Source: Takakia lepidozioides (lineage: Eukaryota > Plantae > Bryophyta). From it: a stretch of 64,000 bases of DNA. The first letter of the stretch is position 1. Every line of letters begins with the position of its first letter. The notes beneath the pieces are model-generated. The model saw only the letters and a program-made list of their open reading frames with translations, made no database searches and had not been told where the DNA came from. Below, piece after piece: positions 2,331 through 56,209 of this stretch. The stretch lies in assembly GCA_030704615.1 (NCBI GenBank), contig CM060732.1, positions 70,432,001 through 70,496,000 of the forward strand, in the 5' to 3' direction. A program made the translations under genes and the position numbers.

Positions 2331-2749
2331 TCTTGGCTCCTTGGCTTATGTGAGTTGGGATTTCAACTTCAAGCTTGAAGGGAGCGCAACTCTTGAAGCA
2401 GCAGGTGTAGAGGGCTGGAATAGGCTCTAAGACATATGCTATGGCCAAGGAGAGTGCTTGAATGAGTGCTCACAAGGGCTGGGAACCAGCAGGGCTTGGT
2501 TGTTTGCCATTGAGTTTAGTGGCGTGTTTGGGGAGGCTAAGTGAGAAAGAAGGCTTGGTTTGTGGCAACCACCTCATGGCTTAGGGCTACTATGGTGGTG
2601 TGTGGGAGCCGAAAGAACAAGAATACCTTGCTGATTTCCTCACAGCCGCCATAGCTCGGTGGAAAGAAGCCTAGAGTCCAAGAGACACAAACCCTAGCTT
2701 GGCGTGGCTAAACCCCTTGGAGAAATGGCTAAACTGCCAGAGCGGCCAT

Positions 2750-3560
2750 GGATGGGGCTGTGACGGGCTGTCCCTGTGGCCTTGGGGGCTGTGACGGGCT
2801 GTGCCGGTGGCCTTTTGGGGCTGTGACGGGCTGTGGGCCCCAGGGCGGGCTTGGCCTTTGGGGCTGTGATGGGCTGTGAGGGGCTGCGCCGTGGCCTTGG
2901 GGCTGGGCTGTGAGGGGCTGTGACAGGCTGTGCCCAGTGGCCAGGCTGTGTGCTGTGCCAGTGGCTGTGGGGCTGTGAGGGGCTGTGAGGGGCTGTTGCC
3001 CTGCGGCCTGTGACAGGCCGTGAGGCCTTGGGGGCTATGACGGGCTGTGAGGGGCTGTGGCAGGCTGTGCCCAGTGGCCTGTGGGGTTGTGAGGGGCTGT
3101 GAGGGGCTGAAGTGACAGGCGTGCCCTTTGGGGCTGTGATGGGCTGTAAGGGGCTGTGACAGGATGTGCCCGTGGCCTTTAGGGCTGTGACAGGCCGTGC
3201 CTGAGGCCTTTGGGGCTGTGACGGGCTGTGAGGGGCTGTGTCAGGCCGTGCCTGAGGCCTTGGGGGCTGTGAGGGGTTGTGGCGAGCTGTGATGGGCTGT
3301 GAGGGGCTGTGACAGGCTGTGCCCAGTGGCCTGTGGGGCTGTGATAGGCTGTGCCCAGTGGCTGTGGGGCTGTGACGGGTTGTGACAGGCTGTGGCAAGC
3401 TGTGACGGGCTGTGGCTGGCCCCTGTGACAGGCTGGCGAGCTGTGACGGGCGATGAGGGGCTGTGACAGGCTGTGCCCAGTGGCCTGTGGGACTGTGACG
3501 GCTATGACCAGTGAGCTGTGTGGGCCTGTGCTGGTCTGTGGTGGCCCATGTTGACCTGTG
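2750..3560. repeat. GC-rich minisatellite with a ~10-bp unit (GGGCTGTGAC/G)
   Basis: Dozens of GGGCTGTG(A/G/C) units with higher-order variants. It produces the low-complexity minus-strand ORFs 2694-3611 and 3179-3688. Confidence 0.9.
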
Positions 3561-4002
3561 GACGGCCTGTTGACTCGTGGAGGCACTAGTGGACTGCCTA
3601 AGGACTGGCATGGTCTTGAAGGCCGAATTTTGAAGCTCGTGGAGGGCGGTTTGAGGAGTATCTTCATGATATTCCCATGGTCATGCAAGTAGAAGTGTAG
3701 GCTATGTTAGGAACTTAGTATTCCAAACCATAAGCCGCAACAGGTTCTCTACCCGGTTACCTTGTGGAGAGGGGGTAAGGGACATGTTCATGACCGGTTG
3801 AGTGTCAACACGGAGGTGCCACTAGTTGCTGGGGACAGTGCCGGTTCGAGCACTAGTGATACTAGTGGGTACACGAGACAAGGTGTGCGGTTTAGGCCAC
3901 CTTCACCTCCTGTGTCTTCTACGGAAGGTTCTGATTCGGATTGTGAATCAGGAGGACTCATACCAGCGGTGCAAGTTTTCTTTGCCATTGTTGTGGGACA
4001 CA

Positions 4003-5578
4003 ATGGAGGAGATGTATGGAGCTACCAAGGGGCCACGACGGTACTCTGGGGCGGTGGGCACCGTCGAGTTGGATGATTTTATCCAAGAGTTTGATAATTG
4101 GTGTGATTTGCAGCAAATGCGCAATCCACAACTATTTACGCATTTCATGGCATGGAAGGGGCTGTTTCAGCACCTTGAGGGGCCGCCTATGGATGATTAC
4201 CATGAGTTCAGGTGGGGGCATGTGGTTGAGATCGAGGAGTGGAGGATGTACTAGTCACCTGACTATGTCTCCATCACTAGGGGCACTAGAGCCACGAGGG
4301 CAGTGGCTACAACTGCCGCTGCACCGGCAGCTTCAGCGAGTAGCAGTGGGACTAGTGGGACTGGTGGTACAGTAGCTACGACGTCCACCCAAGCCACTAC
4401 CGCACCAGCACTAGTACCCGTGCCTGCCTTCAATCCTGTTGTGGAGTTCTTCGAAGAGTTGACAGGGAACTACCAAGGGGTGAGGACAGAGAAGTTGCGG
4501 AGCTTGCAAGAGTTCCAACGGAAGCCGACCGAGAGCTTGAGGGAGGCTTTCACTCGCATGAGGCGCTTGATAAATGTAACCCAAGGGTTACGGAAGCTCA
4601 GGCAGTCCAATTCTGGTATGGGATATTGGACAAGGAGCTGAGGAGACGGGTGCGGGATGCAACTCTCCTACAAGCGGCCCAACCCACCTTAGCAAATGTG
4701 TTTTTGCTGGCAGAGCGGATAGAGCTCAACATGGTGGAGGAACGAGTGGTCATGGTGGGATTTGCTAAGGAGACACCACGGGGTAGTGGTGATCCTAGCC
4801 AACCACTACCTCAATGTGCTCAAGGCAACAAGGGGGCTCAGGTGAAGCTTACGGAAGGGCAGAGAGGACCTCAGATGCAGGGGTCTCTCCCTTCATTTGC
4901 TGGCCAACAACGGGCGGATGTGGTGTGCTGGACATGTGGAGGACCCCATGTCAAGAAGGATTGCCCAGAGGGAGGCAAAGGGCCGGCACATGCACAGCCT
5001 GCACAGTTGCAGTGTGGGGCATTGTGGCAAGCACGGGCATGGAGAGGCCCAGTGTTATGGTTTGCATCCTGAGTTGCGCCCAGGCCAGTTCCGAGGGAAC
5101 AATGGTGGCCGGGGGCGAGGTGGAGCAGCCTAGAGAGGACGAGGTGGCCAGCCACGAGGTGCAGGCGAAGGGCAAGCTCAACATGGCCAAGGACGCGGAG
5201 GTCAGGGTGTTGACCAAGGCATGGCCAACCAGCTTCAGCAGCTAGAGCAGAGGCTCGCTGCCATGACTACAGCTCAGGTGGTACCGGCTCTAAGGCCGGA
5301 TCGTCCACCTCTTGCTCCTGAGGGAGGAGATATGGGAGGCATGGGATTCATGTGTGGAGCAGCACTACCACTAGTGCTGGTGGAGTCTGCTGCAGCCGTG
5401 ACTCGAGGAGCAGCACGAGTTCCTGAGCCACGAGGTACAGAGGTGGAGTTGGATCCACAGCGTGGGGAGGCAAGCCGTCAGGCTAGGCTTCCTCAGTCAT
5501 TCACATTGGCGGAGACAGTGTCGACGCCATCCATGGCACCTAGTTCTCGCCCGATTGTTACCGAGGAGGAGGTTACTA
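4003..5578 (+). pseudogene. Gag of the DNMT-Gypsy element (first copy), two CCHC knuckles, frameshifted
   Basis: ELDDFIQEFDNWC...LRSLQEFQRKPTESLREAFTRMRRL, then CWTCGGPHVKKDC and C(G)HCGKHGHGEAQC. Stops at 4252 and 5131. Confidence 0.8.
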
Positions 5579-6300
5579 TGTCGCGGCCCTTTGCCTTGAG
5601 GGCAGGGGGGTCGGGACACATGAGGGGTTGCCCCTGTGGTGGGGGCAGCGGCAGTGATAGGTATGGGGGGCTGAAATACCCTTGAGTGCCCAAGGCACCC
5701 AAGGAGGCGGAGGCGCTCACTAGGTGGAGCCCGCACACCGGGTTGCGGTGGGGGTGGCTCCACAAGGGGGGTGGTAGCTTAGCGGGACTTAGTGGGGGTG
5801 GCATGGACTAACCATGGGGGCGGAGACCTCGTGGTGGGAGTCGTGGGGAGTCTTGGGACTCATCACGGTCCATAGGGGCCGTGGTGAGTGGGCCAAGACT
5901 CACCGCGACTCATCGCCGGGAGTCGAGGGTTTTCGTGGTGGTTCGCCATAAAATGGCATGGTTGGTTGTGGAACCCCCGCGGACAGCTACAGAAGTATAT
6001 ATAGGGAGTAGTAACCCCGAGAACGGTGCAAGCCCGTTGGTGACCAAAAACTAGTGAGTAAGCGAGCGAGCCGGAAAGCGACCAAAGAGTGGGGAGCTGT
6101 TCCGGACTGCCATCTACCAAAGGGAATTCTCCTAGTCCCAATTAGGTGGAGGGTTTAGAGGGGAGCGAAGAGGGGACCGTTATGTCCGGTGAGCAGCCGA
6201 AGCTCCAAGTTGGCCCGGCGGCCAGGTTGGGAGTCAGGCGCGCGCATCAAAGCGAGTAACTATGACTTGAAGGGAGCTTACCGAAGTGAGGTGCGCGACA
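5579..6300 (+). repeat. 5' LTR of chromovirus
   Basis: Starts TGTCGCG and ends CGCGACA (7-bp terminal inverted repeat). TATATATA at ~5996. Highly similar to 11381-12108. Confidence 0.93.
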
Positions 6301-6302
6301 CT

Positions 6303-6314
6303 TGGTATCAGAGC
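6303..6314 (+). other. Primer-binding site (3' end of tRNA-iMet)
   Basis: TGGTATCAGAGC, 2 nt after the LTR end. Confidence 0.95.
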
Positions 6315-6356
6315 TTAGAGTTCAGTACGCGATCGTCCTTGGGATTGGCCTCATCA

Positions 6357-9300
6357 TGGGGTCGGGCAAGCCGAAGCGAAAGCGGAACGGCCCAAAAGAT
6401 GATGATCCCGGTGAGCCCGATGGGGGCGGCGTGTCACCGAGGCGGCCGTTTGAGGAAGCGATTCATGTTTCCAAAAACGAGGCCGCCCAAGAGCGGGAGG
6501 AATCCGAGGAGTCGGAGCCCGAGGAATCCTTGAGAGCTCCGACAAACCAAGAGATGCCTCCCATGCCGGCAGCCTTTTGGGAAGGGTTGTTGGCGCAGTT
6601 TGGCGGGACGTTGAAAGACGTGTTGAAGGCGGCTAATGCCACTTCCACTAAGGCAAAGTTTAAGGTGAAGCCTAAGGAACCCGGCACCTTCGAGGGCGTC
6701 CAAAATCGGAAGGCACTCAACACCTGGCTCCTGGAGCTAGAGCAGTACTTCCGGGCGGCCAAGTTGAGTGACGAGGATCGGGTGGAAGTGGCTCCCACCT
6801 ATTTGAGGGGCTATGCTCAACAATGGTGGCAGAAACGCCTTCACGACCGAGGTCCAAGCCCGGAAACCTTGAACTGGAGTGGGTTCAAGGAATTGATGAA
6901 GAGACAGTTTGTGCCCCTCAACGCGTCCTGGCTTGCCCGGGACAAGATGAGGAATTTGAAGCAAACAGATGACATTCGGGGGATGTCCAGGCTTTCAATG
7001 TGCTGTTGCTCGAAGTCGCGGACATGGCAGAACCAGAAATGGTCTTCAACTTTGTGGCGGGACTGGCCCCATGAGGTAGGCAACTATTCTTGTGAGTTGT
7101 ATCAGGAAACTGGCGCCCTGCGTAAAGAGAGTCAGTTATTGTTCATGGAAGGATAATATCCGGAACTAACGTGTCGTTGTTGGTGGACACAGGAGCGTCG
7201 CACTCCTTCATGACGCCGGCGGCGGCGCGAAAGTTGGGACTCCCGACAAGTGACGTGGGGGCCTCTATTGAGGTGCGTTCTGCCAAAGGAGAACCACAGT
7301 TGCGACAAGGTTGGCGTTTGATGTTCCTCTTCAACTGGGGAGTTGGGAGGGACGTGAGAACTTCACCATCTGCGAGATCGATGGAGTGGATCTCATTTTG
7401 GGGATGACCTTTTTGAGCAAATCCGGAGCGGTCATAGATGGCCGCAAGAGAGTAGTCACGCTGCCATGTGGGAATGGTGGTGAGGGTTACGAGTGTCGGA
7501 AACGCCCAAATCCGTGGAGGGCGAATAAACCTTCTGTCAGCAAGGGAGTGGGCCGTGGAGGAGGCACACGAGCCCCAATTTTTGCTTTACATTAGAGAAG
7601 TGAAAGGGAGAAGGCGATGGGGAGCCGAGCCCAGATTGGATCAAGGGGATTTTGGAGAAATACCAGGATGTGATGCCGGAGGATTTACCAAGCGGCTTGC
7701 CACCGCGAAGAGGAGTTGACCACAAGATTGAGGTGATACCGGGATCGGAACCGCCTGCCAAGGCACCCTACCGGTTGAGCCACAGGGAGTTGGTCGAGCT
7801 GAAGACTCAGCTCAAGGATCTAATGTCAAAGGGGTACATCCGGCCGAGTAAGTCACCTTACGGAGCCCCGGTGCTATTCGCAGACAAGAAGGATGGGACG
7901 CTGCGGATGTGTGTCGATTACAGGGCTCTGAATAAGGTGACTATCAAAAACCGGTACCCTTTGCCAAGGATCGACGACCTCTTCGATCGGTTGGCAGGAG
8001 CGAAGTATTTCAGCCGGATCGACTTGCGCTCCGGCTATCATCAAATTCGGGTGGCGGAAGGAGATGAGGAGAAGACCGCGTGCAGGACAAGGTATGGTTC
8101 ATATGAGTTCTTGGTGATGCCTTTTGGGCTCACCAATGCACCAGCGACATTTAGCACGCTGATGAACAGCCTTTTCCAGGAGTGGTTGGATGACTTTGTG
8201 ATCGTGTACATCGACGACATCTTGGTGTACTCGAAAACATATAAGAACAGCCTGGAGCACCTACCAAAGGGTGTTCCAAAAATGCGAAAAGGGAAGCTGT
8301 ATGCCAAGCTTCAAAAGTGGCGAATTCGGGGTCACAAAAAGTGGAGTTCCTGGGGATTGGATTTACACAGGATGGATCAAAAATGGATGAAGAAAGGTTG
8401 AGGGCGATCTTTACTGGGAGCCTCCGACTTCGGTTCCGGAGTGCGATCCTTCCTAGGACTCGCCTCCTATTACCGGAAGTATGTGAGAAATTTCGCCAAG
8501 ATCGTGGGCCGCTGTCGGACCTTCTGTGTAAATCCAAAGTCTGGGTATGTAACACATTTGTGGCCAAGCTTTTGCTGAATTGAAGCAGTGGATGGCGGAA
8601 GCTCCAGTCTTGAAAATACCGGAGTTCGATCGTCCATTTGAGATTCATACAGATGCGTCGGACTTCGCGATTGGGGGTGTACTTATGCAAGATGGACGTC
8701 CAGTGGCTTACGAAAGTAAGAAACTGAATGAAGTGGAGCGACGGTGGCCGACGCACGAAAAAGAGATGAAGGCGGTGGTGCATTGCCTTGAGCTTTGGCG
8801 CCACTATGTTGGTTCCAACCCAGTGAAGGTGTTCACGGACAATGTCACAGTGAAGTATTTTGCCACGCAGCCCAAGTTGTCCCCAAAACAACTTAGGTGG
8901 CAAGATACTTTGGCGGTGTTCGACGTGGATATCCAGTACAAACCGGGACGGGACAATGTGGTGGCCGATGCTTTAAGTAGAAAGCAGCAGCTCCTGTTGG
9001 TGTACAGGGGCGAGACGCCGCTCCAAAGGAAGATCTGGAAGGCTTGCCGGAAGGATGAGCTGGCGAAGTCCGTGATGCAGGACTTGAGGATGGGGGTTAA
9101 ATCGCAGTTCCACTTGCAAAATGGACTGCTCCGGTATAAGCAAAAAAGTCTCTACGTGCCAAAGGGAGGGATCAGAGATAGCCTCTTGAGAGAATGCCAT
9201 GATAGCCCGCTTGCGGGCCACGGCAGAGCCAAGCGCACTGCGGCACTCCTGAAGAAAGAGTATTTCTGGGCCCAAACTGAGGGAGGAGGCAGAGGAGTAT

Positions 9301-10475
9301 GTCAAGACATGCACCACATGCCAACAAAACCAGAGCGAGTACAAAAAGCAAGCGGGGCTGTTACAACCCTTGCCGATTCCAGAGGGGACTTGGGAAAGCG
9401 TCTCGATGGATTTCATGACTGCTATGCTGCTGTCAAAAGGATTCGATGCAATCATGGTGGTGGTGGATAGGTTCAGTAAAATGGGCCATTTCATCCCCAC
9501 CAAGGAGACGGCAACGGCGTAGGAGACAGGGCGACTTTACTTCGCCCACGTCTTAAAGCATCATGGAGTCCCGAAGGATATTGTCTCGGACCGCGATCCA
9601 AAATTTACGAGTAAATTTTGGAGGGCACTTTGGAAGAAGATGGGGACGAGGCTGAAGATGAGCACCGCCTTCCGACCTACGACCGACGGCCAAACAGAAA
9701 GAGTGAATTCCGTAGTGAAGCAGATCTTGCGGAATTACGTGTCGGCAGGCCAAACAGACTGGGTGGAACACTTAGACGCGGCAGAGTTATGTTATAATAA
9801 CAGAGAACACTCCGCAACGGGAGTTTCCCCTTTTGTATTGGTCTATGGAAAAGCACCTCTGGTGCCGACAAGTTGGGCCGCCCAGGACGTTGAGGAACCG
9901 GCAGTAGCGGCGGTACTACTGGAAGAACGCGAGCGTTTTTGAAGCTCGCAAAGTACAACATTGCCAAAGCTAGGAAACGGTATGAAAGGCAGGCAAATCG
10001 GAAGCGGAGGGAAGTGAAGTTTGAGGAAGGTATAGAGGTCTGGTTGAACATCAAGAATTTCCGACTACCTCCGGAAGTGAGTCCAAAGTTCGTACCTCTG
10101 TATGCGGGACCCTTTCGCATTCGCAAGGTTATGAATGAGGATGTGTATGAATTGGAGCTGCCGGCAAAAAGTAAGGTACACCCAGTATTCCATGTATCCC
10201 TTTTGAAGCCTTACTTCAAAGATGAAGCGCGTCCGAATCGGCATCAAGTGTTGCGTCCGCCACCTATGCTGTTGGATCATGAAAATGAACCTGAGTACAA
10301 GGTGGAGGCAATACTTAAGTCGAGGAGGTTCAGGAACCGAGAAACGGAGTATCTCGTCAAATGGAAGGGCTATCATCATGTGGAGGCATCTTGGGTGCGT
10401 GCCTCAGAAATGGGAAACGCATCCGAGGCGGTTGCAGCTTTCGAAGGGCGACCTCAAAAGCGGAAGAAACGTTGA
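6357..10475 (+). pseudogene. Chromovirus gag-pol with frameshifts and stops: Gag, aspartic protease, RT, RNase H, integrase, chromodomain
   Basis: Gag PGTFEG..WLLELEQYF; protease LLVDTGASHSF; [13 protein letters not shown]...MPFGLTNAP...YIDD; RNase H TDASDFAIGGVL; integrase H..PLAGH / DRDPKFTS / DGQTERVN; chromodomain EYKVEAIL...YLVKWKGY...SW. Confidence 0.92.
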
Positions 10476-11380
10476 TGGGGACATCAACCTTGGAGCGTGG
10501 GGGAGGAAATGCATGCTTAGCCCGGCTTAGCTAGCATAGGAATCCGATTGCAAAAACTTGTATTGTACAAAACGTGCTATAAATGAAATGGCTTCCAAAT
10601 GTTGTGCGTCCTATTTTGTTTGGAATGGTGATGCATGGTATGGTTGGCTAGTGTGTAGAATGCATGCTAGCTTATAAAAGTGGGAGAGGTAAATTGGCTT
10701 AATCGTGTGTTTGCGTAGTGCCGAAATCGGGTGACCCCCATCCAAGGGGCAAGGAAACTTGCGCCTTCTTTGGGAGTTCACGTGCTAGTGCACACCTGGC
10801 GTGTGCGCGTACTATAACTGCGCTACCGAGGGGGTTGCCTTGTAGTGCGGGCTAACGCGGAAGCTACGTGCTTCCGTTCACGTACTATAATCGTGTAGCC
10901 TCGGGACGAAGTCGTAGTGCGGCTTCGGCGTGTTCCCGTACCTCAGGCCAGCATTCCAAGGCGGACCCAATTGTAGTGATTGGGGCGCACGGTTGGTTCA
11001 ATATTATCTTCTTAGTCAAAGAGGGTTCCAGGTGAACCCTTGCTCAAGGTGATGCCAAAAGCGGCATCATGAGCGATCGCAAGCAATGTTGTTGCAGTAA
11101 GGCGATTCGATCCTCGGGGAGGATCGTTCCTTGGCCTTGAAGTAGGCCAAGAAGAGTGCACTGGGAGGAGCTGGAGAGGCTCCACCCTTGGCCAGGACTT
11201 GGAGGAAGTCGGCCGAACTAGCTAGTGGAGAGTAGAGTCAAGTGTGGGGTTTGGTTCTTTGCCATAGGACGCCATGGTACGGAAACAAACTCCTTGATGT
11301 GGGACGCCACAACTTGGATGTTCGTTTCTACAAAATGGACAAGTCGATGAGGACATCGACTCCCTGTTGGTAGGGGTGTG

Positions 11381-12108
11381 TGTCGCGGCCCTTTGCCTTA
11401 AGGGCAGGGGGGTCGGGACACATGAGGGGTTGCCCCTGTGGTGGGGGCAGTGGCAACGATAGGTATGGGGTGCTGAAGCACCCTTGAGTGCCCAAGGCAC
11501 CCAAGGAGGCGGAGGCGCTTACTAGGTGGAGCCCCGCACACCGGGTTGCGGTGGGGGTGGCTCCACAAGGGGTGGTGGTAGCTTAGCGGGACTTAGTGGG
11601 GGTGGCATAGGACTCACCATGGGGGCGGAGACCTCGTGGTGGGAGTCGTGGGGAGTCTTGGGACTCATCACGGTCCATAGGGGCCGTGGTGAGTGGGCCA
11701 AGACTCACCGCGACTCATCGCCGGGAGTCGAGGGTTTTCGTGGTGGTTCGCCATAAAAATGGCATGGTTGGTTGTGAAACCCCCGCGGACAGCTACAGAA
11801 GTATATATAGGGAGTAGTAACCCCGAGAACGGTGCAAGCCCGTTGGTGACCAAAAACTAGTGAGTAAGCGAGCGAGCCGGAAAGCGACCAAAGAGTGGGG
11901 AGCTGTTCCGGACTGCCACTACCAAAGGGAATTCCCGCTGGTTCCAAATCGGTGGAGGGTTCTTTGGGAGAACAAAGGGGGACCGTTATGCCCCGGTGAG
12001 CAGCCGAAGCTCCAAGTTGGCCCGGCGGCCAGGTTGGGAGTCAGGCGCGCGCATCAAAGTGAGTAACTATGACTTGAGGGGGAGCTTACCGAAGTGAGGT
12101 GCGCGACA
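11381..12108 (+). repeat. 3' LTR of chromovirus
   Basis: TGTCGCG...CGCGACA, preceded by hairpin GTCGATG-AGGA-CATCGAC and PPT-like GGTAGGGG. Unusually, it is followed by a second PBS. Confidence 0.93.
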
Positions 12109-12140
12109 CTTGGTATCAGAGCTTAGAGTTTAGTACGTGA

Positions 12141-13510
12141 TCTGGTATGGGATATTGGACAAGGAGCTGAGGAGAAGGGTGCGGGATGCAACTCTCCTAC
12201 AAGCGGACCAACCCACCTTAGCAAATGTGTTTTTGCTGGCAGAGCGGATAGAGCTCAACATGGTGGAGGAACGAGTGGTCATGGTGGGATTTGCTAAGGA
12301 GACACCACGGGATAGTGGTGCTCCTAGCCAACCACTACCTCAATGTGCTCAAGGCAACAAGGGGGCTCAGGTGAAGCTTACGGAAGGGCAGAGAGGACCT
12401 CAGATGCAGGGGTCTCTCCCTTCATTTGCTGGCCAACAACGGGCGGATGTGGTGTGCTGGACATGTGGAGGACCCCATGTCAAGAAGGATTGCCCAGAGG
12501 GAGGCAAAGGGCCGGCACATGCACAGCCTGCACAGTTGCAGTGTGGGCATTGTGGCAAGCACGGGCATGGAGAGGCCCAGTGTTATGGTTTGCATCCTGA
12601 GTTGCGCCCAGGCCAGGTCCAATGGAACAATGGTGGCCGGAGGCGAGGTGGAGCAGCTCAGAGAGGACGAGGTGGCTAGCCACGAGGTGAAGGCTAAGGG
12701 CAAGTTCAACATGGCCAAGGACGCGGAGGTCAGGGTGTTGACCAAGGCATGGCCAACCGGATTCAGCAGCTAGAGCAGAGGCTCGCTGCCATGACTACAG
12801 CTCAGGTGGTACCGGCTCTAAGGCTGGATCGTCCACCTCTTGCTCCTGAGGGAGGAGATATGGGAGGCATGGGATTCATGTGTGGAGCAGCACTACCACT
12901 AGTGCAGGTGGAGTCTGCCGCAGCCGTGACTCGAGGAGCAGCACGAGTTCCTGAGCCACGAGGTACAGAGGTGGAGTTGGATCCACAGCGTGGGGAGGCA
13001 AGCCGTCAGGCTAGGCTTCCTCAGTCATTCACATTGGCGGAGACAGTGTCGACGCCATCCATGGCACCTAGTTCTCGCCCGACTGTTACCGAGGCGGAGG
13101 TTACTATGCCATTGCGGAGAGCTACACGGGTAGCACCACTACCTAGTGTTGCCAAGGCTACGGCAGCTAGTGTGCTACTAGGAGCGGCCACATCTGTGTG
13201 CCAGGCTCCTCGGCTACCATGATTGCAACGCCGGGGGTAAGACCAGCTGAGGTGTTCAGGCTGGCAGCTACACTCTGTGAGAGTGGGGAGGTTACTTCAT
13301 CTTCTGAGGAAATAGTGGGAGGTGTAGTGCCGGAGGGATCCTCGGATTTGAGGGTCAAGACTGCCACGGCGGCGCCATGGCAAGCTGCAGCTGCCAAGGT
13401 TGATGGAGCTGCCAGCTAGGCCAGCCATTGAGCGCGCCATGGTGACACCTGAAGTTGTCATGTTAGACAACCAGGATGGCATTTTCTGTTTGAGTGGACC
13501 GGCAGGCAAG
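12141..13510 (+). pseudogene. Second copy of DNMT-Gypsy gag C-terminal region (12141-13106 duplicates 4612-5578), continuing into the linker
   Basis: Near-identical sequence and translation (WYGILDKELRRRVRD...CWTCGGPH...CGHCGKHGH). It runs uninterrupted past the site where copy 1 is broken by the LTR. Confidence 0.9.
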
Positions 13511-13519
13511 AGGTAACGG

Positions 13520-13900
13520 CCACTGCGGGTCTTGTTGGACTCAGGAGCTCAGCCATTGATGTTGGGCAGAGCTGCTATTGCAGGCTTGGGCCTCACGGAG
13601 GCGGATATGGAGCCTTGTCCTTTCCAGATACAGACATCTCTGGGAGGATCGGAGCAGGCTCAGGGCATGACACGACGTGAGTTGGCTATCAGACTATGGC
13701 CGGATCACCCTACAGATGGCTCAGTGATGCGAGCCAAGGCCATTGTGACAGATGCGGTCTCATACGATGTCCTGGTTGGTGGGGCAGTGTTGTACCCCCT
13801 GGGCTTCACCCTGGATTTTTGGGAGGAGTCAGCTTCATATAGGCCTGCATGGCAGTCAGGGGAGGGCCGGCGTGTGCAGCTCCCTGTGACGTTCATAGGA
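13520..13900 (+). pseudogene. Retropepsin-type aspartic protease of the DNMT-Gypsy element
   Basis: VLLDSGAQPLMLG ... YDVLVGGAVL (D-S-G active site and hydrophobic-G motif). Confidence 0.8.
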
Positions 13901-14239
13901 AGAGTTGCGATTGCCCTGCGAGGCAAGATGCCAACACTAGCAGCATTCAGAGCGGCAGTGAATTGGCCTAGAGAGTTGCTTGAGGGCAATGCTCATTCAG
14001 AGGATGTGCCACCTCCGGGAGAGCAGGATGACATGTATGGTATGGCGGAGTTACCTACCATGGTTGCTCAGACTCCATTGTGGGGCACGAGCAAGGATTT
14101 GCAGCGGGATGCTGATCAACGGGTGCAACAAGCCTGGGTGGAGGCTTTTGTACCGTCAGGAGAGGAGGAGAGTGCGGGGATTGCACCAAGACCACCTCAG
14201 TTGTCTCCATTGGACACCACACCTATTGTGTGGCAGTAT

Positions 14240-15190
14240 CCGGATGAAGGCATTTGTTGTTTGGCGGGATCAGCACCGGATTGGCTGCTATGTTACAGGC
14301 AGGTGTACGAATTCGGCGTAACCTGTATGTGGAGAGGGATGAGACTGCACGACGCATTTCACTTTGCCATGTTGCTCAGTTGGTGCAGTGGTACCTTGAG
14401 TTGTTGTCGGTGTCTGCAATTCGTGGATATCAGCAGACATTTCGTTGCTGGGGGCGCAGGATTTGGAGCGGGTTGGCTCCATTGATCTGGTAGTGGCAGG
14501 TTGGCCTTACCAAGGGCATTCATCAGCCGGGCATGGCAATGGATTGCGAGATTCGAGGTCGGGTCTGTTTTGGGAGATGGTGCGGGTTTTGCGCCACTTG
14601 CAGCTTCATCAAGCTGTATCTCCAGCATACATCTTGGAGAATGTGCCACTGATGGGCGATTCTTGGGCCAGGGTGATGGCCAGTGTGCATCAAGTCCGGT
14701 CATGGCTTGGGTCAGCAATGTTGCTAGATGCAGCTACAGTGGGGTCACGGGCTCATCGTCCACGGCTATGGTGGACTAACTTGATGCCACCCGCACTGCT
14801 CAAGCGTGCATTTGATGGGGTGCAGCGGCCAGCACATCTCACAGTGGATAGCATTCTGGACACAGGGAGGCAGTCTCAGCGTGTGAGACACGATGACCGT
14901 TCGCCTTTGGCAGTGGTCAACAAGGTGGGTCAACCACGAGCAGCATTACCTACACTGCTCAGCTTCCCAGGATCGCATGCTTTCCGGGATAGTGGACCTG
15001 GCCTCCTGTGGGATGCTTAGTTGCAGCAGTTAGTGGAGCCTAATGCTGACGAGCGTGAGTGGGCAATGGGTTTTACCACTGGTACCACGGCGGTGTCGTC
15101 TCTTTCTGAGGCATCACGTCGTCAAGTGTTAGGGCAAGCAATGGATCTCAATTGCTTGACCTGGATTATCAGCTTGGCTCTGGCTGAGCA
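14240..15190 (+). pseudogene. C5 DNA cytosine methyltransferase catalytic domain (DNMT3-like) embedded in the retrotransposon polyprotein
   Basis: Motif I LFGGISTG; II YVERD; IV DLVVAGWP[Y]QGHS; V GLRDSRSGLF; VI YILENV; VIII DAATVGSRAHRPRLWWTNL; IX EREWAMGFTTGTT; X RRQVLGQAMD. Frameshifts near 14255 and 14445, a stop at 15018, and the catalytic Cys position is TAC (14508-14510). Confidence 0.92.
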
Positions 15191-15559
15191 ACGCAGAGTG
15201 CGGAGTACACTTCCCTCGATGGTCTCTCTGCCTACCGAGACGGTACAGGCAGTGAGTGGGGGCGAGCATGTGAGGACCAGGGGGTGCATGCATCCATGGC
15301 ACACGTGGGAGGTGCTCGAGGTTCAGAGGGAGTTGGCAGCCAAGGCGGCTGTGATGGATGAGGTTGGGGATTCTTCTCGGATTGAGGAGGTCCTCAAGGA
15401 TGAGATGATGGGGTAGGATGAGGCCTTGTCATTGACTGAGTAGGCAGGGAGTACTGCTCAAGAGGTTGCAACATAGCAACCACTGGACGTTACGGAGGAC
15501 AATTGGGAGCCTGACATTGGACCCATTGTCACCGGAGGAGAGAGACGACGTATACGGCG

Positions 15560-16960
15560 GTTCCTGAGGGCTTACAAGAATTGCTTTGCTTTCAGTTTGA
15601 AGGACTTGGGAGCACTGAAGGGTCAAGAGATCCGTATTGAGTTGGTCACTGACACGCCAATCTTTCGGAGACCCTATAGATACAGTGACATGGGAGAGGT
15701 CTTTGATTCAGATGAGGACTCAAGATCTCTAAGAGGCAGGTTTGGTGGAGCTCTCTGGTGGAGAGTATGCTTCAGCCACAATGATGCCAGGCAAGAAGGA
15801 TGTCTATGGCAATTGGACGGAGAGACGTATGTGCGGTGATTACCGGCCTATAAATCGTCAGACCAAGTCCGATAAGTATGCCATGCCAACACCAGAGGAG
15901 ATCTTTGATGCCATCGGGCATGCTAAGGCCTTTAGCACTTTGGATTTACGATCCGGATATCACCAGTTGCCAATCAAGGAGGCGGACAAGCAGAAGACGA
16001 CATTCTGGGGGATCAATGAGCACGGCAAGGATTGCCTATATCAGTGGCGGTTCTTACCATTTGGGCTTAAGAATGCTCCTGCAGAGTTTCAGAGAGTCAT
16101 GGATAGGATTCTAGCAGGGGTGGACTTTGCTCGGTGCTACATAGATGACATCATCATCTTTAGTTTTACAATGGAGGAGCATGAGAGACACCTTTAGGTG
16201 GTATTGGAGCGCTTGAGAGCGCACGGATTGAAGTTGCATTCGGGGAAGTGCAAGTTTTTCCACAACCAGATTGAGTATCTGGGTCACATGATATATCCTG
16301 GAGGATTGGGGGTACAGCAGACTAAGGTAGAGGCCATTGCACAAATTCCACGCCCCACGGATGTGAGCCGAGTTCGAGCTTTCATGGGGTTGGCAAACTA
16401 TTATAGACGGTTTGTCAAGGGATTTAGTACCATTGCAAAGGCTCTAACCAAGCTGACCAAGGTGGACCAGGAGTGACAGTGGGAAGATGAGCAGGAACGA
16501 GCTTTTCAAGACTCAAGGCGAGGTTGACCTCGGCGCCTATCCTGAGACGACCCTTTCAGTTGCATACGGATTGGAGCATGCTGGAGCGGTGCTCACACAG
16601 GTGGATGATGAGGGGAGAGAGTTCGTAGTGGCTTATGCTAGCCGCTCGAGCAACGCTGCAGAGGCTAAGTACAGCTCATATGAGGGAGAGTGCTTAGCTG
16701 CAGTGTGGGCCGTGACACACTTCAGGTGCTATCTATACGGCAATCTTTTCACCCTTGTCACAGATCACCAGCCACTCAAGTGGTTGATGGAGTCAGACAA
16801 GCTTACGGGGAAGCTTGCACGGTGGGCCTTCATACTCCAGGAGTATGACTTTCAGGTTTTGCATCGACCGGGTTTGGTCAATCGGGATGCGGATGGATTG
16901 AGTCGCAATCCATGCATGAGCCAGCAGGATGACACCGGAGCTCGGTGGCATGATGAGACG
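15560..16960 (+). pseudogene. Reverse transcriptase and RNase H of the DNMT-Gypsy element
   Basis: RRPYR; RMCGDYRPIN; [10 protein letters not shown]; LPFGLKNAP; YIDD; FMGLANYYRRFV; GAVLTQ..VVAYASR..YSSYEGECLAAVW..TDHQPL..ADGLSR. Stops at 16195 and 16474. Confidence 0.93.
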
Positions 16961-17239
16961 GACGAGGAGATGGTGCCGGAATGGCACGCATCTCTATTTT
17001 TGTGTATCTTGGCATCGGGAGGTCAGGTTGGACCTACAACAGGGATGACTGTAGACGGAGTGTCTGAGGATCCTAAGGCTAGTGATGAGCCGGGTGGTGC
17101 CAGAGATATACATGAGGATTCGGCTTTGTTGGACTACCTCCGCACGGGAGACACGGCAGCCACTGTGACTGCCAGGGAGAGGGATCGGATCCTGCAATGA
17201 GCCAAGAGGTTCAAGTGGGAGGGGATACACCTACTTCGA

Positions 17240-18550
17240 GTGTGGGAGGATGGTCGGGTGAGGATTGTGCCTCACCCCACACAGCGTGCACGGTTAGTGC
17301 GGCATGCCCATGAGGAGTTGGGGCATTTTGGAGTGCGACGCACTCACAGTTTACTGCAGGGGCAGTATTGGTGGCGTGGTATGCATACAGAGGTGCAACA
17401 GTTCGTGGCTAGGTGCATGGTGTGTGACAAGGTGCGTGCTTCATTCAACGACCCTACACCACAGTTGCATCCTTTACCAATCATGGGATTGAGCTATAGG
17501 TGGAGTCTTGACTTCGCAGGACCGTTGCCACTGACTATGCGCCACCACAGATATGTGTTGGTGATGGTGGAGCACTTCTCCAAGTGGATTGAGTTGGTTC
17601 CATTGCTTGACAAGGCTAGTGAGGGGGCTGCGTATGCATTCTTGGATCGTGTGCTTAGCCGATTTGGTGCTCTAGCTGAGGTACTCACGGACCAAGGGAG
17701 AGAGTTCTTGGGGGAGATTCAGGCTTTGTGTGATAAAGCCTTGATAGACCACCGCACCACTTCTCGGGATCATCCTGAGGCCGATGGCTTAGCAGAGAGA
17801 GTTGTTCAGACGATGAAGAGGGGTTTGCGCAAGTATGGCTTGCAGAAGGGACACCTAGGAGATTGGGATCTTCAGGTTCTTTGGTTAGTCATGGGCTACA
17901 GGTTCAGCAAACAAGCATCACTTGCCTCCTTCTCACCATATTTCCTTCTCTTTGGCCGAGAGTCGGATTTGCCTGCAGCCATTCGTAGGGACACTGCTCA
18001 AGTCCTTAACCTTGACGATCCGGACATGTGGGTACATGCATGTGATCAGCGTGCAGAGTTATTCAAGAAAGTCATGCCCATGGCTTTTGATAACCTTGCC
18101 ATTGCACAGCACCGTGATACGTTGAGGTATGCCACTATACGTGGTGGAGGATATCGTCCTGGGGTTCGGAGGTTTAGCCCTGGTGACTATGTTTATTTGC
18201 AGCAGACTGCTCCTACGACTCTGGACGTTACTGCAGGGCATGTTATTCTGAGGGTTCGAGAGGTGTTGCCCTCAGGGGTCCTGATCTTGGAGGGTCGGGA
18301 TGGCATGACTTGGAAGGACCATATGCGTAATTGTGCGCCATGTCACCTTCCCAATGTCGTTGGCAGAGTTGACCCAAACTTGGCAGTGGTACCTGCAGGT
18401 TTGAGGTGCATGCTCTGTGGGTCTGCCAAAGGGGCAGCCACCATGCTGGTGTGTGATCGATGCTCAAGGGGTTGGCATATGGGATGCTTGACACCACCTC
18501 TTGAGAAGGTTCCTGACGGAGATTGGTTGTGTCCACACTGCTTGGGATAG
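17240..18550 (+). CDS. Integrase (HHCC + DDE) with C-terminal PHD finger, last segment of the DNMT-Gypsy polyprotein
   Basis: HEELGH...CMVC; WSLDFAGP; TDQGREF; AERVVQ; then C4HC3 CMLC..CDRC..WHMGC..WLCPHC (18407-18541) before TAG. The frame is open, but it belongs to a broken polyprotein. Confidence 0.9.
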   Translation: MWEDGRVRIVPHPTQRARLVRHAHEELGHFGVRRTHSLLQGQYWWRGMHTEVQQFVARCMVCDKVRASFNDPTPQLHPLPIMGLSYRWSLDFAGPLPLTMRHHRYVLVMVEHFSKWIELVPLLDKASEGAAYAFLDRVLSRFGALAEVLTDQGREFLGEIQALCDKALIDHRTTSRDHPEADGLAERVVQTMKRGLRKYGLQKGHLGDWDLQVLWLVMGYRFSKQASLASFSPYFLLFGRESDLPAAIRRDTAQVLNLDDPDMWVHACDQRAELFKKVMPMAFDNLAIAQHRDTLRYATIRGGGYRPGVRRFSPGDYVYLQQTAPTTLDVTAGHVILRVREVLPSGVLILEGRDGMTWKDHMRNCAPCHLPNVVGRVDPNLAVVPAGLRCMLCGSAKGAATMLVCDRCSRGWHMGCLTPPLEKVPDGDWLCPHCLG

Positions 18551-19179
18551 TGGCAGTGGACATGACTGGAGGCAGCTAACAAGACATGGGAGGCCAAGCT
18601 CATAGGAGTCAATACATGAGATCCCAAGTTTAAGTTCACAGGTTGCAAGACGGCAACTAACGATGGGGCAACTCTTGCACCCGGCCTCTTGATCTATCGA
18701 GTTTGAGTGTAGTAGGGATAGTGGTGGAGGACTTAGTGAGGCTATGGTCAGTCATCTTTCTCAAGTAAGAATCATAAAGCCATGCGGCACCGCTTCCCTT
18801 CACCTGTACTTGCACAACACACCACGTGGTCTCCCCTGTAACTTAATCTTTCTGAAACAGATCATCATAAAGAAAGAGGCAGCACCGCCTGCAGCCGCAC
18901 ATCCTACCAAGCATCGCCCCTTAACTGACTGCTGCACCGCATGCCACGATGTTCTCCCCGTAAGGTAATCTCCCAGAATTCGATCATTACCAAGAAGATG
19001 GCGGTACCATTAACACAGAGCTGAATTTGCTCTTTGTGTCCCTGCCTATTCTCCCTGCTCATTCCATTGCCCGCAGCAAAATCCACTGAGTGTTTTCCTC
19101 CCTACGCTCCCTGCTACACACACTCTTGCTCGTTCTTCTGCTCATAGCACCCCGTAGGGCATTCCCTGCCATCGCGCAC

Positions 19180-20149: not shown

Positions 20150-21013
20150 GCTCTTACATTGTGGAACCTGTGGAAAGCTAGGTGTTCATTCGTTGAAGGG
20201 AAATCCCCCAGGGCAGGTCTATTGTCTTTTGCATTTACCAAGACATGCTTACTGAGGGGAGGAAAGCATGGGGCATTATGATTGCAGTTGTTTCCAGATC
20301 TTCAGAACAATGCAGGAGAAAGTTCTTCAATGATTTTCAGCAGTCCTAGGCTAAAAATGACATTCTTGGAACTAATGTTCCCAACGGGCGATTTTGTTGG
20401 CAAGTCTCTACTCCCACCGCATCCAAGATGTCCCCTGGTGAGGGAGATGATGGGGGCTTCAACTAGAGGCACAAGAAGGCCCGGGTTACTGAGTTTAGAA
20501 CCTAGCTGCATTTTTAGATAGCTTACACTGGCAATCTTTCAGGCTCTCTGTGTTTTCAGATGGTTTTCAATGGTAGTCTTTTTTGCCCTCTTTCATTCTT
20601 GTGTTGCATCCTTAGCTGGACTCATCCCAGCCCTCTGCTTCCCAGCAGCCTGCTGGGCACCTACTCACATTTACTCTTGTAAGGTAGCTTAGCTGAGAGC
20701 TCCCCGTTATATTCTCGTCACTTTCTCTTATGCTAGCACTGTCCTTTCTCTTTAGGCTTGGTACAATTTTCTACTTAGCAGCATTTTCTTTTAGGCTCTG
20801 ACCCTAGTTCATCTCACTATGCAACGTTTGTCTTCCTCATTGTCATGTTTTCTCTATCTCTTCAGATAGCTGATATGCTACGGTTATGGGGAAGTTCCCC
20901 CGCAATTAGCCTTTCCGGCCTCTCGGTGGTTATTTTTTCCACCTTTTTGTGAACCTTTACTTAAATTAATTTGATTAAGAGGGCCTCTGTCCCATTTCTT
21001 TATAAAAAAAAAA
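20150..21013 (+). mobile_element. 3' part of the interrupted L1-type LINE, ending in poly(A)
   Basis: Immediately after the CACTA end the frame reads ALTLWNLWKARCSF (W..WK.R motif). A T-rich 3' UTR follows, with an A-run at ~21004-21013. Confidence 0.65.
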
Positions 21014-21560
21014 GAATTCTAAAGGTAGGATGTTGGCTTCAGTTTACTTGGGCATTGCTCTGCACATGTTGCTCGCTGAGGGTTTCAGAATCCCTTGAGC
21101 ACTGCCTCTTGCAATACAACATACTTTCAAAAGTTTGGCCCAAAATTCACTGGATGCTCAGCCACTGGCATGACCGTGCCTCATTGACTCCAATCAACAT
21201 GCTACTGAACTACGATCCCATCTCCAAGCAACCTTTATCCCAATGTCTAGTTTTTGACATGATCAGGGCTGTCGGGCTCTGGCACATCTGGAAAACCAGA
21301 TGCGCATGGACCCTAGGAAATACTAACTCGACTGTCTCATTGATGCTTGCTTTGATCTTCTTTGACATCCAAACTGAATCTTGGAAGGCTTGGGCCAAAC
21401 TTTCTGCAGACATCTGCAAGCATTCAGAAGCTCAAAATCAGCTCCATAGCGCCTTCATCACCTCATGGGCAATGCATGGAATCGCATGCTCGAGCCCTTC
21501 ACCAACAACCTGCATTTGGAGCTCAATCCCTTAAGGATGGAGAAATTGCAACTCGTCACT
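21014..21560 (+). mobile_element. Second L1-type LINE ORF2 3' fragment
   Basis: C..C...ESLEHCLLQ...FDMIRAVGLWHIWKTRC in ORF 20971-21534. Confidence 0.7.
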
Positions 21561-53612: not shown

Positions 53613-56209
53613 ATGGCAACTTGTGCTCACCCAACCCACCTTGCGGTTTCTGCCTCGAATGTTGTGACTCATGAGGTTAGTTTTCGTGTCTTTGTGTGAG
53701 AGGGGGTAGGAGGAGAAGGGGGAGCTGCGTTCTTTGGAGATTCGTTGACTGGGTCGGTGGAAAGAGGGTATTTTGGGATCGGGACTCTGTAATTCATAGA
53801 TTGCATGAAAGAAATGTTGTTGCCGGGTGTGGCCTGAAGCTGGCTTACTCAGAAATGTTGCCATTGTGTGGCTGCGTGAACAACACCAAACCACTACTCC
53901 TCTCTGGCGAGTTCTGCATGGCTTGTCATGCATTACGTCCTTTGAAAGCTGTCTTCTCCCTTCTATGCAGAAATCATGACAGAATAGAGCGAATACTGAT
54001 CCCTACGATGGTGATAATAGCATGCTGATTTGGCTGACGATGAATTGAGTGTCTTTCCTTTCGCAGAAGTCGGCCGGGTTTGCCACAAATGTGACGGCAT
54101 CCACTTTTTTGGGAACCAGGGTCTCCCACCAGAAGAGAGAGACGTTGCTGTCTTCCAGAAAGATCACATCCGTAAGTTACTGGACACCTCATAGCTAGTA
54201 CTCTCTGCAAAGAATCACACCACTTTTTTCTTGTGAGAAAATGCTGTTAGCTTCCGCCACCTACAGCGGTGTGATTTCCCGTATGCGTGGGAAGAGTTTC
54301 TAGCTTTACTTTAATGGAGAGCTTGGTGGTTTCTAATCCCTTGGTCCATGAACTTATGTGTCTGGCACATCAACCAGGTTACATATAGTTCAATTCATGC
54401 GAGTTCTAAGTGTGAACTGCAGAACAATTAACTGTGGGGTGCTCAATGCCATGTATAAAATAAAATCCTGCCCCTTGTCTCTCTTTAAGGAACACTAACA
54501 TGTGACGTCTGAACGCAGGACTCCCAGAGGCATGGCTACTCTCTCACTCCCAAAGCTCAAAGTGTTGCGGCCCCTGTTGAGACCAAGAGACCAGAGAGTG
54601 CCAAAAAGACTGAAACGAAGTCCACGGTGATTATCACTGGTGCTTCATCGGGTCTGGGCCTCGCCACAGCAAAGGCTCTCGCCGATTCTGGAGAATGGCA
54701 TGTCATCATGGCGTGTCGCGACTTTTTGAAAGCAGAAAGAGCGGCCAAGTCAGTGGGCATGCCCAAGGGCAGCTACACTGTGATGCACTTGGACTTGGCT
54801 TCCTTTGAGAGCGTTAAGCAATTTGTGGACAACTTCAGGAGGTCTGGCATGCCCTTGGATGTCCTTGTTTGTAATGCTGCTGTCTATTTCCCAACTGCCA
54901 AGGAGCCGCACTGGACAGCTGAAGGGTTTGAGCTGAGCGTTGGTACCAACCACCTTGGCCACTTCCTTCTTGCTCGTCTTCTCTTGGAGGATCTTCAGCA
55001 TGAGAAGAATACCGTGAGTCGAAGGATGATCATTGTGGGATCCATCACAGGTATGACCCTTGTGTTTCCTGCTCTGGTTTGGAGCTTTGATGTGGCAACA
55101 AATTTGTCATTGTTGGCATAGCACTGGGTCCAATGAAATCTGACTTTCAAAACGATGGTGAAGTTCCATACTCCTGCTTGCAATTGTGTTCTGACTCTGT
55201 CCTGGGCACTGACTACAGGAAACACCAACACCCTGGCTGGCAACATTCCTCCCAAGGCCAACTTAGGTGACCTTAGAGGGCTCTCAGGGGGTCTTAATGG
55301 GGTGCAGTCCTCTACCATGATAGATGGTGGAGATTTTGATGGAGCCAAGGCATACAAGGACAGCAAGGTGTGTAACATGCTGACAATGCAAGAGCTGCAC
55401 CGGCGCTACCACGAGGAGACCGGCATCACGTTTGCCTCACTGTACCCTGGCTGCATTGCCACCACGGGTCTGTTCAGGGAGCACATCCCTCTTTTCCGGA
55501 CCCTCTTTCCACCATTTCAAAAGTACATCACCAAAGGGTATGTCTCAGAGGAGGAGTCAGGCAAGAGACTTGCTCAGGTACATTTCTTCTCTACACCGTG
55601 TTTAAGTATTACCTGGACTCTACAAGTGCTCTAGCTAGTCGATTGAGACATGGACCACCGTGCAGTGTCATTTTTTTGTTGGGATGGTATCAGAGACTTG
55701 CTCAGGTACATTTCTTCCGTACACCATGTTTAAGTATTACCTGGACTCTCCAAGTGCTCTAGCTAGTCGATTGAGGCATGGACCACCGTGCAGTGTCATT
55801 TTTTTGTTGGGATGGTATCAGCAGAGTAACAAATCTGAGTGCCCCTGCACTTGGGAACTTCTGGTAGGTACTCCCAAGGTCCTCAATGGCTTCTGTTCCA
55901 TGATATCTCATGCCAGAAGCCTTGCTAAGATCACTTGCATTGGCCTTCTAGACCCCTGCTCTCCCAATTTGAGTCCATGAGACACTTGAGAGGACGTTTG
56001 GTAGATTGGAGAGGTATGAAAAGCATGGGTTCATGTCTTGTCATCTTATGCAGGTAGTGAGTGACAGAAAGATGACCAAGTCAGGGGTATATTGGAGCTG
56101 GAACAATGACTCCAATTCGTTTGAGAATCAGCTGTCTGAGGAAGCTAGTGATGCTGATAAGGCAAGGCGGCTATGGGACATCAGTGAGAAGTTGGTGGGG
56201 TTGGCCTAA
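53613..56209 (+). CDS. POR: Light-dependent NADPH:protochlorophyllide oxidoreductase, chloroplastic; exons ~53613-53675, 54067-54171, 54519-55050, 55219-55577, 56053-56209
   Basis: Transit-peptide-like N-terminus; TGASSGLG; MACRDF; [10 protein letters not shown]; YKDSK; [19 protein letters not shown]; SGVYWSWN...SEKLVGLA*. Confidence 0.96.
55564..55820 (+). repeat. 128-bp tandem duplication spanning the POR exon 4/intron 4 junction
   Basis: AGAGACTTGCTCAG|GTACATTTCTTC...GGGATGGTATC at 55564 and 55692, near-identical. Confidence 0.93.

Follow-up and report, generated by a model that had tools for sequence, protein, structure and literature searches.

A DNMT3-like methyltransferase domain between protease and reverse transcriptase in a Gypsy retrotransposon lineage of bryophytes and green algae

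The locus

The subject of this analysis is a 64,000-nucleotide stretch of the Takakia lepidozioides genome (the window; assembly GCA_030704615.1, contig CM060732.1, positions 70,432,001 to 70,496,000), whose forward strand carries a Gypsy-type retrotransposon with a DNA methyltransferase (DNMT) domain. Pfam matches place the DNMT first, with reverse transcriptase (RT), RNase H, integrase, and a PHD finger following downstream on the same strand. A preliminary description, made from the sequence alone, had read 3743-18672 as a single element encoding a colinear Gag-protease-DNMT-RT-RNase H-integrase-PHD polyprotein. The domain order stands, while the window copy turned out to be frame-broken with a stop at 15018, and the interval is not a single element because a chromovirus (5579-12140) sits in gag and a gag segment is duplicated. 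The features are as follows.

3711..5578, plus strand: gag of the outer element, 5' part, broken, without leader and 5' repeat (tblastn to Marchantia P0007 Gag at 4003-4949)
5579..12140, plus strand: nested chromovirus, foreign to the DNMT element (Pfam Retrotrans_gag, protease, RT, RNase H, integrase, Chromo)
12141..13108, plus strand: duplicate of gag 4612-5580, continuing into the rest of the outer element (97.7-97.8% identity)
13517..13903, plus strand: aspartic protease, LLDSGA at 13532-13549 (tblastn to P0007 protease)
14248..15176, plus strand: DNMT3-like C5 cytosine methyltransferase domain, pseudogenised (PF00145, family profile, L032 model)
15474..15482, plus strand: conserved in-frame stop TAG, then CAA CCA; end of open reading frame 1 (ORF1) and predicted readthrough site (TAR-CAA conservation)
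15477..16473, plus strand: reverse transcriptase, broken, YIDD at 16138-16149 (PF00078, E 4e-21)
16577..17197, plus strand: RNase H and linker (PF17917, E 3e-31)
17201..18370, plus strand: DDE integrase with H2C2 zinc finger (PF17921, E 3e-16; PF00665, E 4e-11)
18407..18541, plus strand: PHD finger at the integrase C-terminus (PF00628, E 1.5e-10)
18551..18750, plus strand: 3' untranslated part, ending before the polypurine tract and repeats of relatives (42-nt motif, depth drop)

The PF00145 match spans 14400-15017 (E 4e-10, 40 bits against a cut-off of 22), and the DNMT segment comprises ∼307 codons without introns on the strand of RT and integrase, close to the ∼310 first described. The methyltransferase motifs I to X likewise lie between the protease LLDSGA and the RT YIDD where they had been placed, with LFGGISTG at 14257-14280, YVERD at 14326-14340, DLVVAGWP at 14484-14507, ENV at 14637-14645, AHRPRLWWTNL at 14751-14783, motif IX at 15036-15059, and motif X at 15129-15146. 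The copy itself is a dead, decayed element with a pseudogenised DNMT: the frame is broken near 14256 and at 14431-14436, the stop at 15018 follows, and the catalytic motif IV reads PYQ instead of PCQ. At both frame breaks, other host copies differ from the window copy in contigs of four sequencing runs (at most three samples).

Outside the DNMT, moss copies and P0551 have an upstream frame that resembles the one at 3711-4076, the protease gives a Pfam match that is weak in the window (E 0.024) and stronger in relatives, and a 42-nt motif at 18652-18693 is common to the window and moss copies. The outer element ends abruptly at 18750, where contig depth drops ∼1000-fold and loose ends appear.

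The methyltransferase domain

The DNMT3-like identity proposed at the outset is borne out by both the family profile and a predicted structure. Against solved structures, a profile of 22 family members scored DNMT3A best (87 bits), ahead of DRM2 (47) and HhaI (40). A stop-free moss domain (L032), modelled from a 58-row alignment with a pLDDT of 96, found its best PDB matches in DNMT3A/B (TM 0.74). Sequence and fold thus both lie closest to the catalytic domain of mammalian DNMT3A/3B, with unpermuted motifs, unlike DRM2; the identity to these enzymes is, however, only ∼21%, and the element lacks PWWP and ADD domains.

Comparison of the window with related loci gave pN/pS ratios of 0.25 for the DNMT (63 loci), 0.20 for RT (46), 0.15 for RNase H (40), and 0.23 for integrase (17), and the median dN/dS over DNMT motifs I-III was 0.18 (71 unsaturated of 72 pairs). 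The pN/pS ratios are rough because synonymous sites are saturated (pS 0.79) and the loci are decayed and non-independent, which weighs against a strict reading. Judged from these substitution patterns, the DNMT is under purifying selection about as strong as that on RT and integrase.

A viral donor of the domain was considered and rejected, as 61 IMG/VR loci showed just 21-36% identity over part of the domain. These loci (L081-L141) encode small DNMT3-like methyltransferases with an HRxRxxWxN motif, and seven of them served as the outgroup in the DNMT tree. An Atlas search returned generic DNA_methylase clusters only.

Family and distribution

The DNMT query retrieved 40 longer homologous proteins, headed by Marchantia polymorpha, Calypogeia fissa, and Sphagnum. 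Representatives below E 0.001 number 1653, of which 150 were considered, and the metagenome relatives are the best 80 of 211 related stretches; proteins of the latter (moss-type) stretches cluster with Sphagnum models. The nearest named relatives of the window element are liverwort and moss proteins, and further relatives occur in Klebsormidium and chlorophytes. Gag, protease, DNMT, and the RT start share one frame in six relatives (L001, L003, L007, L008, L028, and L056). Copies with an open ORF and PCQ, which the preliminary description had proposed to seek, exist as five further Marchantia ORF1 models (P0486, P0487, P0493-P0495), and an open 1319-aa Gag-protease-DNMT protein and a 1040-aa RT-to-PHD protein are recorded on contigs both 8781 long. 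In the host, summed contig depth is ∼1e6 across DNMT, RT, and integrase versus ∼1e3 in the flank, values that are not a copy number; the DNMT depth is like that of RT and integrase, and the repeat family in the host therefore includes the DNMT.

Phylogenetic analysis groups the window with Marchantia, Calypogeia, and Sphagnum-type sequences in the DNMT tree (approximate likelihood ratio test, aLRT, 98; 89 rows) and again in RT trees of 210 and 77 rows. All DNMT-bearing RTs fall in one 70-member clade (aLRT 99), which includes one DNMT-less protein and is set against a thin outgroup. The RT of Klebsormidium nitens, the alga from which a Gypsy element with a Dnmt3-like domain was described as KnitGypsy-Dnmt3 (de Mendoza et al. 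2018, PMC5890265), is not sister to the bryophyte group, and deep nodes are weakly supported. An RT-integrase-PHD protein of Coleochaete scutata is sister to a 12-sequence group with the window and bryophytes (aLRT 88). These trees point to the DNMT-bearing Gypsy elements being a clade across green plants. The matches listed include no named sequence from hornworts, lycophytes, ferns, or seed plants, a weak negative given annotation masking.

A second architecture, RT-RNase H-DNMT-integrase-PHD, is common, with named members in the chlorophytes Scenedesmus, Chromochloris, Hariotina, and Monoraphidium. Its DNMTs make up a single clade (30 rows, aLRT 95) that is nested among protease-DNMT-RT forms when the tree is rooted on phage enzymes. 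The simplest reading would be a single DNMT capture followed by relocation within the polyprotein, in a tree that has a long root, low deep support, mostly unnamed rows, and no host DNMT3.

It could be argued that a single dead element captured a host DNMT3 once, or that the domain is a neutral passenger. The window copy is indeed a pseudogene, and the moss-type loci are decayed, with only 3/42 full-length DNMT stretches stop-free. This reading is nonetheless very improbable in view of the family-wide presence of the domain, the open Marchantia ORF1 models, the constraint resembling that on RT and integrase, and the congruent placement of the window in the RT and DNMT trees. The preliminary description had listed three observations that would speak against a DNMT-bearing lineage, namely absence of the segment from other members, a DNMT never in frame with protease and RT, and neutral evolution; none of them was encountered.

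Two observations concern individual family members. P0486, P0487, P0488, and P0491 (Mp_Vg00370, Mp_Vg00540, Mp_Vg00690, and Mp_Vg00480) lie on the Marchantia male V chromosome; they are 4 among the 15 listed members of the Marchantia ORF1 cluster, and two are full 1281-aa models with PCQ. P0391 (CAA9586175.1) and P0236 are deposited as uncultured Synechococcales and Minisyncoccia metagenome-assembled genome proteins, probably through binning contamination.

A conserved stop codon after the DNMT

Among 51 sequences in which an RT N-terminus follows a DNMT, 47 carry TAR-CAA at one and the same place (31 TAG, 16 TAA), in frame with RT in 46. The remaining rows comprise one GAG-CAA and three that are unreadable (two with an insertion, one divergent element). 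Elsewhere in ORF1, the strongest hotspot of decay stops reaches 30% (11/37). A separate pattern search recovered 57 loci across the stop site that form 50 clusters at 97.5% identity, and most are therefore distinct copies. In the window, the stops at 15414 and 15441 are peculiar to this copy; the stop at 15474 is shared with the host family, whose contigs have no variant of at least 5% over 15451-15523; the stretch following the stop is a net 39 nt longer, in frame, in those contigs. In a 22-sequence DNMT clade (aLRT 100), the DNMT is followed by the end of the ORF in every member whose end is available, save one gap-bridging gene model. The end lies 80-84 residues past the DNMT in Marchantia and Calypogeia models and ∼60-190 in related metagenome proteins. 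Most Klebsormidium-type proteins are fused, with no intervening stop, P0228 being an exception. The claim that the DNMT lies inside Pol was thus right as to its place between protease and RT, but the family-wide stop at 15474-15476 parts it from RT: the DNMT ends the Gag-protease ORF (ORF1), and synthesis of RT-integrase likely depends on readthrough.

The window context, TAG CAA CCA, matches the CAR YYA consensus given for the tobacco mosaic virus readthrough signal in the text of PMC2754532, and RT, RNase H, integrase, and PHD are probably made by stop readthrough. Several points weigh against this. Moss copies read TAG CAA CCC ATG, an incomplete CAR YYA match; the AUG so formed, 6 nt past the stop in 46 of the 48 moss-type rows read, would fit reinitiation; and a pyrimidine-rich stretch with an AG shortly after the stop resembles a splice acceptor. 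As to Gag, the predicted fold of the Marchantia protein ranks retroelement capsids first, yet weakly (best E 0.02).

Translation of RT-integrase from its own start past the stop, or from a spliced RNA, would account for the AUG and the pyrimidine tract. Splicing between protease and RT is known from Ogre elements. We nevertheless regard both routes as unlikely. The window family has an invariant CTG at the place of the AUG, L017 has GTG and L020 TTA, and the RT models of Calypogeia have their starting Met within the conserved RT N-terminus. The four gene models running across the stop (P0008, P0016, P0021, and P0262) each do so through a different junction, and both host groups retain the CAA that directly follows the stop codon. 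Either alternative would leave the DNMT at the Gag level of synthesis, except where the splice takes it out.

Activity and substrate of the methyltransferase

If readthrough supplies RT and integrase, the DNMT would be made at Gag-like abundance and be packed in the particle; its release by the protease and packaging are reasonably probable. Catalytic activity of the DNMT in intact members is likewise reasonably probable. The catalytic Cys, ENV, and RxR motifs are present in the family, motifs VI and VIII are nearly invariant, and the Cys is retained in 41/42 correctly read loci, also in forms with ECQ.

Whether the substrate would be new cDNA before integration, a proposal already put forward in the discussion of PMC5890265, is evenly balanced in our estimate. 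A somewhat less probable alternative is that the DNMT acts on chromosomal DNA (its own promoter, the insertion site, or host loci) or serves as a non-catalytic DNA or RNA binder. Gag-level synthesis yields far more enzyme than one cDNA requires, and in the 209 proteins whose motif IV could be read, it is PCQ in 117 and ECQ in 73. The K. nitens Gypsy-borne domain, according to the text of PMC5890265, did not methylate yeast DNA, a result its authors call inconclusive and one that also counts against activity here; among such domains, that text reports de novo CG methylation in yeast for SymbioDIRS-Dnmt3 alone. Against a non-catalytic or chromosomal role stand the retention of the catalytic Cys and of motifs VI and VIII, and the fact that the domain stays within a protease-processed polyprotein at both of its positions.

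Repeats and ends in moss-type relatives

The window holds no LTR (long terminal repeat) or other terminal repeat of the outer element, no self-priming site or 5' repeat upstream of gag, and no polypurine tract at the 3' end of the copy; a search of the window for DIRS1-type inverted-repeat ends gave only short chance pairs. Repeats, primer-binding site, and purine tract were therefore examined in moss-type relatives only, a restriction that weighs against extending what follows to the window copy.

Moss copies start with a 330-bp repeat A and end in B1-A2-B2 in 10 loci (8 distinct) or in B alone in 12 (11 distinct), with three 3' ends undecided. All 21 available 5' ends (18 distinct) begin at A and B precedes none, so that an ordinary B-A LTR was found in 0/18 distinct 5' ends. 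Among the seven copies that have both ends, four show an exact 4-bp target duplication, two show it with one mismatch, and one has a damaged end. The relatives have TG...CA ends and a purine tract before B1; B1 begins directly after this tract, and the B1-A2 junction reads CA-GC-TG. Repeat A holds a TATAAA and, 31 nt on, a 12-mer complementary to the 12 nt following A1. This candidate self-primer matches at 10-12 of 12 positions in 10/20 A1 repeats, versus one of 343 controls reaching 10 and none 11, and the tRNA-type TGG is absent after A1 in moss copies. In L064, repeat A ∼153-180 contains a hairpin whose right arm is the predicted self-primer and whose left arm repeats the primer-binding site; the hairpin adjoins the predicted transcript start, just upstream.

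Because A ends at the predicted primer site and B starts right after the purine tract, A2-B2 can be read as a join of right end to left end, and B-gc-A is likely the true LTR in permuted form, with A2-B2 joining the two cDNA ends. We envisage that the first 12 nt of the transcript would self-prime the minus strand, as in Tf1, and that plus-strand synthesis would begin from the purine tract upstream of B1. Joining of the two cDNA ends would then create the A2-B2 junction, and cleavage by integrase at the internal CA-GC-TG between B and A would open the molecule to give A1-ORFs-B1-A2-B2. We place this whole route at even odds. Of the 20 A1 repeats, 10 lack the self-priming match at the expected place (four mis-anchored, the others mutated or matching elsewhere), and the predicted leader pairs the 5' end with the priming site, yet is no stabler than shuffles (z -1.2). 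The mirror form A-B-A-ORFs-B, expected of a symmetric two-LTR circle, occurs in 0/18 distinct 5' ends, and the process is thus not a symmetric circle. All of this tells against the route. Repeat identity within an element is barely above that between elements (B 0.924 vs 0.90-0.92), a weak signal.

The split repeats could instead be copied from a transcript through B2, as has been proposed for PAT-like tyrosine-recombinase elements, with no end-joined two-LTR intermediate and with short A-ORFs-B copies arising later by B1-B2 recombination or assembly collapse. The constant A2-B2 junction of long copies and the missing mirror form would suit this, and a 3' flank of ∼85 nt is common to L014 (short) and L071 (long), which means that the short form can derive from the long. 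For the same reason, integration of a one-LTR circle is unneeded as a source of short copies. We consider PAT-like copying possible but the lesser candidate, since the A end at the predicted primer site and the B start after the purine tract are both exact, and a DDE integrase with 4-bp duplications is present, whereas a tyrosine recombinase found no match in 20 window frames or 12 relatives scanned, where the rve integrase is present.

Relation to known elements

The window element probably represents a land-plant branch of the KnitGypsy-Dnmt3 kind. Both have an intronless, unpermuted Dnmt3-like domain among Gypsy pol domains, between protease and RT; the order protease-DNMT-RT-RNase H-integrase is found in KFL_009030040. 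Both also show a constrained DNMT and fall in one RT clade, and the moss relatives share with K. nitens a DIRS-like layout of A1, A2, and a B on either side of A2, the K. nitens layout being taken from the text of PMC5890265 only. They differ in that the K. nitens DNMT lies within the RT ORF, whereas the bryophyte DNMT is in the same frame but split off by the conserved stop. The DNMT domains of K. nitens and Marchantia are only 43% identical, and the hosts here are land plants, with Marchantia and Sphagnum absent from the available part of the PMC5890265 supplement. The text of that paper calls the capture K. nitens-lineage-specific, in contrast to the clade across green plants to which the present trees point. 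In its published tree, the multi-exon Dnmt3 of K. nitens clusters with genes of metazoans and bryophytes, and the Gypsy-borne domains lie elsewhere. The bearing on the origin of plant DNMT3 that was first suggested finds no support.

The SymbioDIRS-Dnmt3 elements of Symbiodinium share a retrotransposon-borne Dnmt3-like domain and split repeats, and belong to an unrelated RT lineage in the account of PMC5890265. Of the Ty3/Gypsy features, the Gag-protease-RT-RNase H-integrase order and the DDE integrase are present, and two direct flanking LTRs were not found. DIRS elements in general form an order with a tyrosine recombinase. Membership of the DIRS/PAT order was rejected on the presence of a DDE integrase and the lack of a detectable tyrosine recombinase. 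Chromoviruses offer two likenesses, self-priming by the transcript 5' end in Tf1/sushi and Tcn1 (texts of PMC10085805 and PMC6317226) and in-frame stop readthrough in Tj1, Tosmo, and Tcry1 (PMC10085805). They have, in contrast, a chromodomain, ordinary LTRs, and a stop between Gag and protease (in-frame gag-pol stops of fission-yeast elements lie before the protease in the text of PMC10085805), where the DNMT element has a PHD finger, a permuted repeat, and a stop after protease and DNMT. Troyka, another unusual Gypsy-like lineage, was rejected as a match to the moss relatives because the text of PMC12440569 gives it as animal-only, with ordinary LTRs, CG ends, and 3-bp duplications.

In the literature searched, which does not extend to Repbase or subscription journals, there is no report of a DNMT-Gypsy lineage in land plants or chlorophytes, nor of a conserved stop or self-primed permuted LTR for DNMT-Gypsy elements, and no support was found for a PHD finger in Selgy. 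PHD, methyltransferase, and Marchantia have 0 occurrences in the main text of PMC6317226 (additional files excluded), and the available text of 10.1101/363937, PMC8616336, and PMC11982613 does not mention the lineage. Such Gypsy elements were thus, within this literature, previously described from one alga only. Beyond PMC5890265 go the conserved TAG-CAA stop, the repeats resembling a permuted LTR, with candidate self-priming, in moss relatives, and the chlorophyte DNMT between RNase H and integrase.

Proposed mechanism and significance

Our current hypothesis, which we favor with moderate confidence, is a green-lineage Gypsy element with a Gag-protease-DNMT ORF1, stop readthrough, and a packed DNMT that would methylate cDNA before integration. 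The Gag-protease-DNMT product would build the particle, a minority readthrough product would bring RT and integrase, and the released DNMT would act on the new cDNA. PHD fingers in general read histone H3. By analogy, the PHD finger of this element would likely direct insertion through such reading. More tentatively, the evidence may be joined into one ancient Gypsy lineage from chlorophytes to liverworts and mosses, with a single DNMT3-like capture, two polyprotein sites, bryophyte readthrough at the Gag level, self-priming, end joining, an internal attachment site for a DDE integrase, and premethylated cDNA.

The role of retrotransposon-borne methyltransferases has been open since 2018, and the hosts then known are hard to manipulate. 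The occurrence of the lineage in Marchantia, Calypogeia, and Sphagnum places it in a genetic model with methylation mutants, and the several open ORF1 models of Marchantia would allow retrotransposon self-methylation to be tested in a land plant. From the conserved stop one would expect the enzyme to be abundant in the particle, a prediction likewise open to test. A permuted LTR, if true, would be a replication route undescribed for DDE elements in the literature searched, and LTR-finding tools likely miss elements that have one. Several Marchantia models labelled hypothetical, CCHC, or DNA methyltransferase are element ORF1 and may inflate counts of host methyltransferases.

Other features of the window

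The nested chromovirus has LTRs at 5579-6300 and 11381-12108 that are 96.9% identical. A tRNA-Met-type primer-binding site follows both, the second being a tandem remnant. The chromovirus is joined to the duplicate of gag 4612-5580 through a 2-nt microhomology, with no second target duplication left. CpG depletion (0.51 for the element, 0.86 for the chromovirus, and 0.43 for the flank) is confounded by age and was not used as evidence. Upstream of gag, 2736-3570 and 1918-2327 are two degenerate tandem-repeat tracts that gave no match to moss leaders or to the element's domains. Further downstream, 20965-21534 holds a 189-aa open stretch that by eye looks like the 3' end of LINE ORF2, with no Pfam match, and 63162-63884 is the beginning of a Copia-type gag (PF14223). 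The flanking genes in the window include a member of the TPD1 family, which agrees with a land-plant host. A 128-bp tandem duplication at 55564-55819 lies at an exon end of a gene resembling protochlorophyllide reductase.

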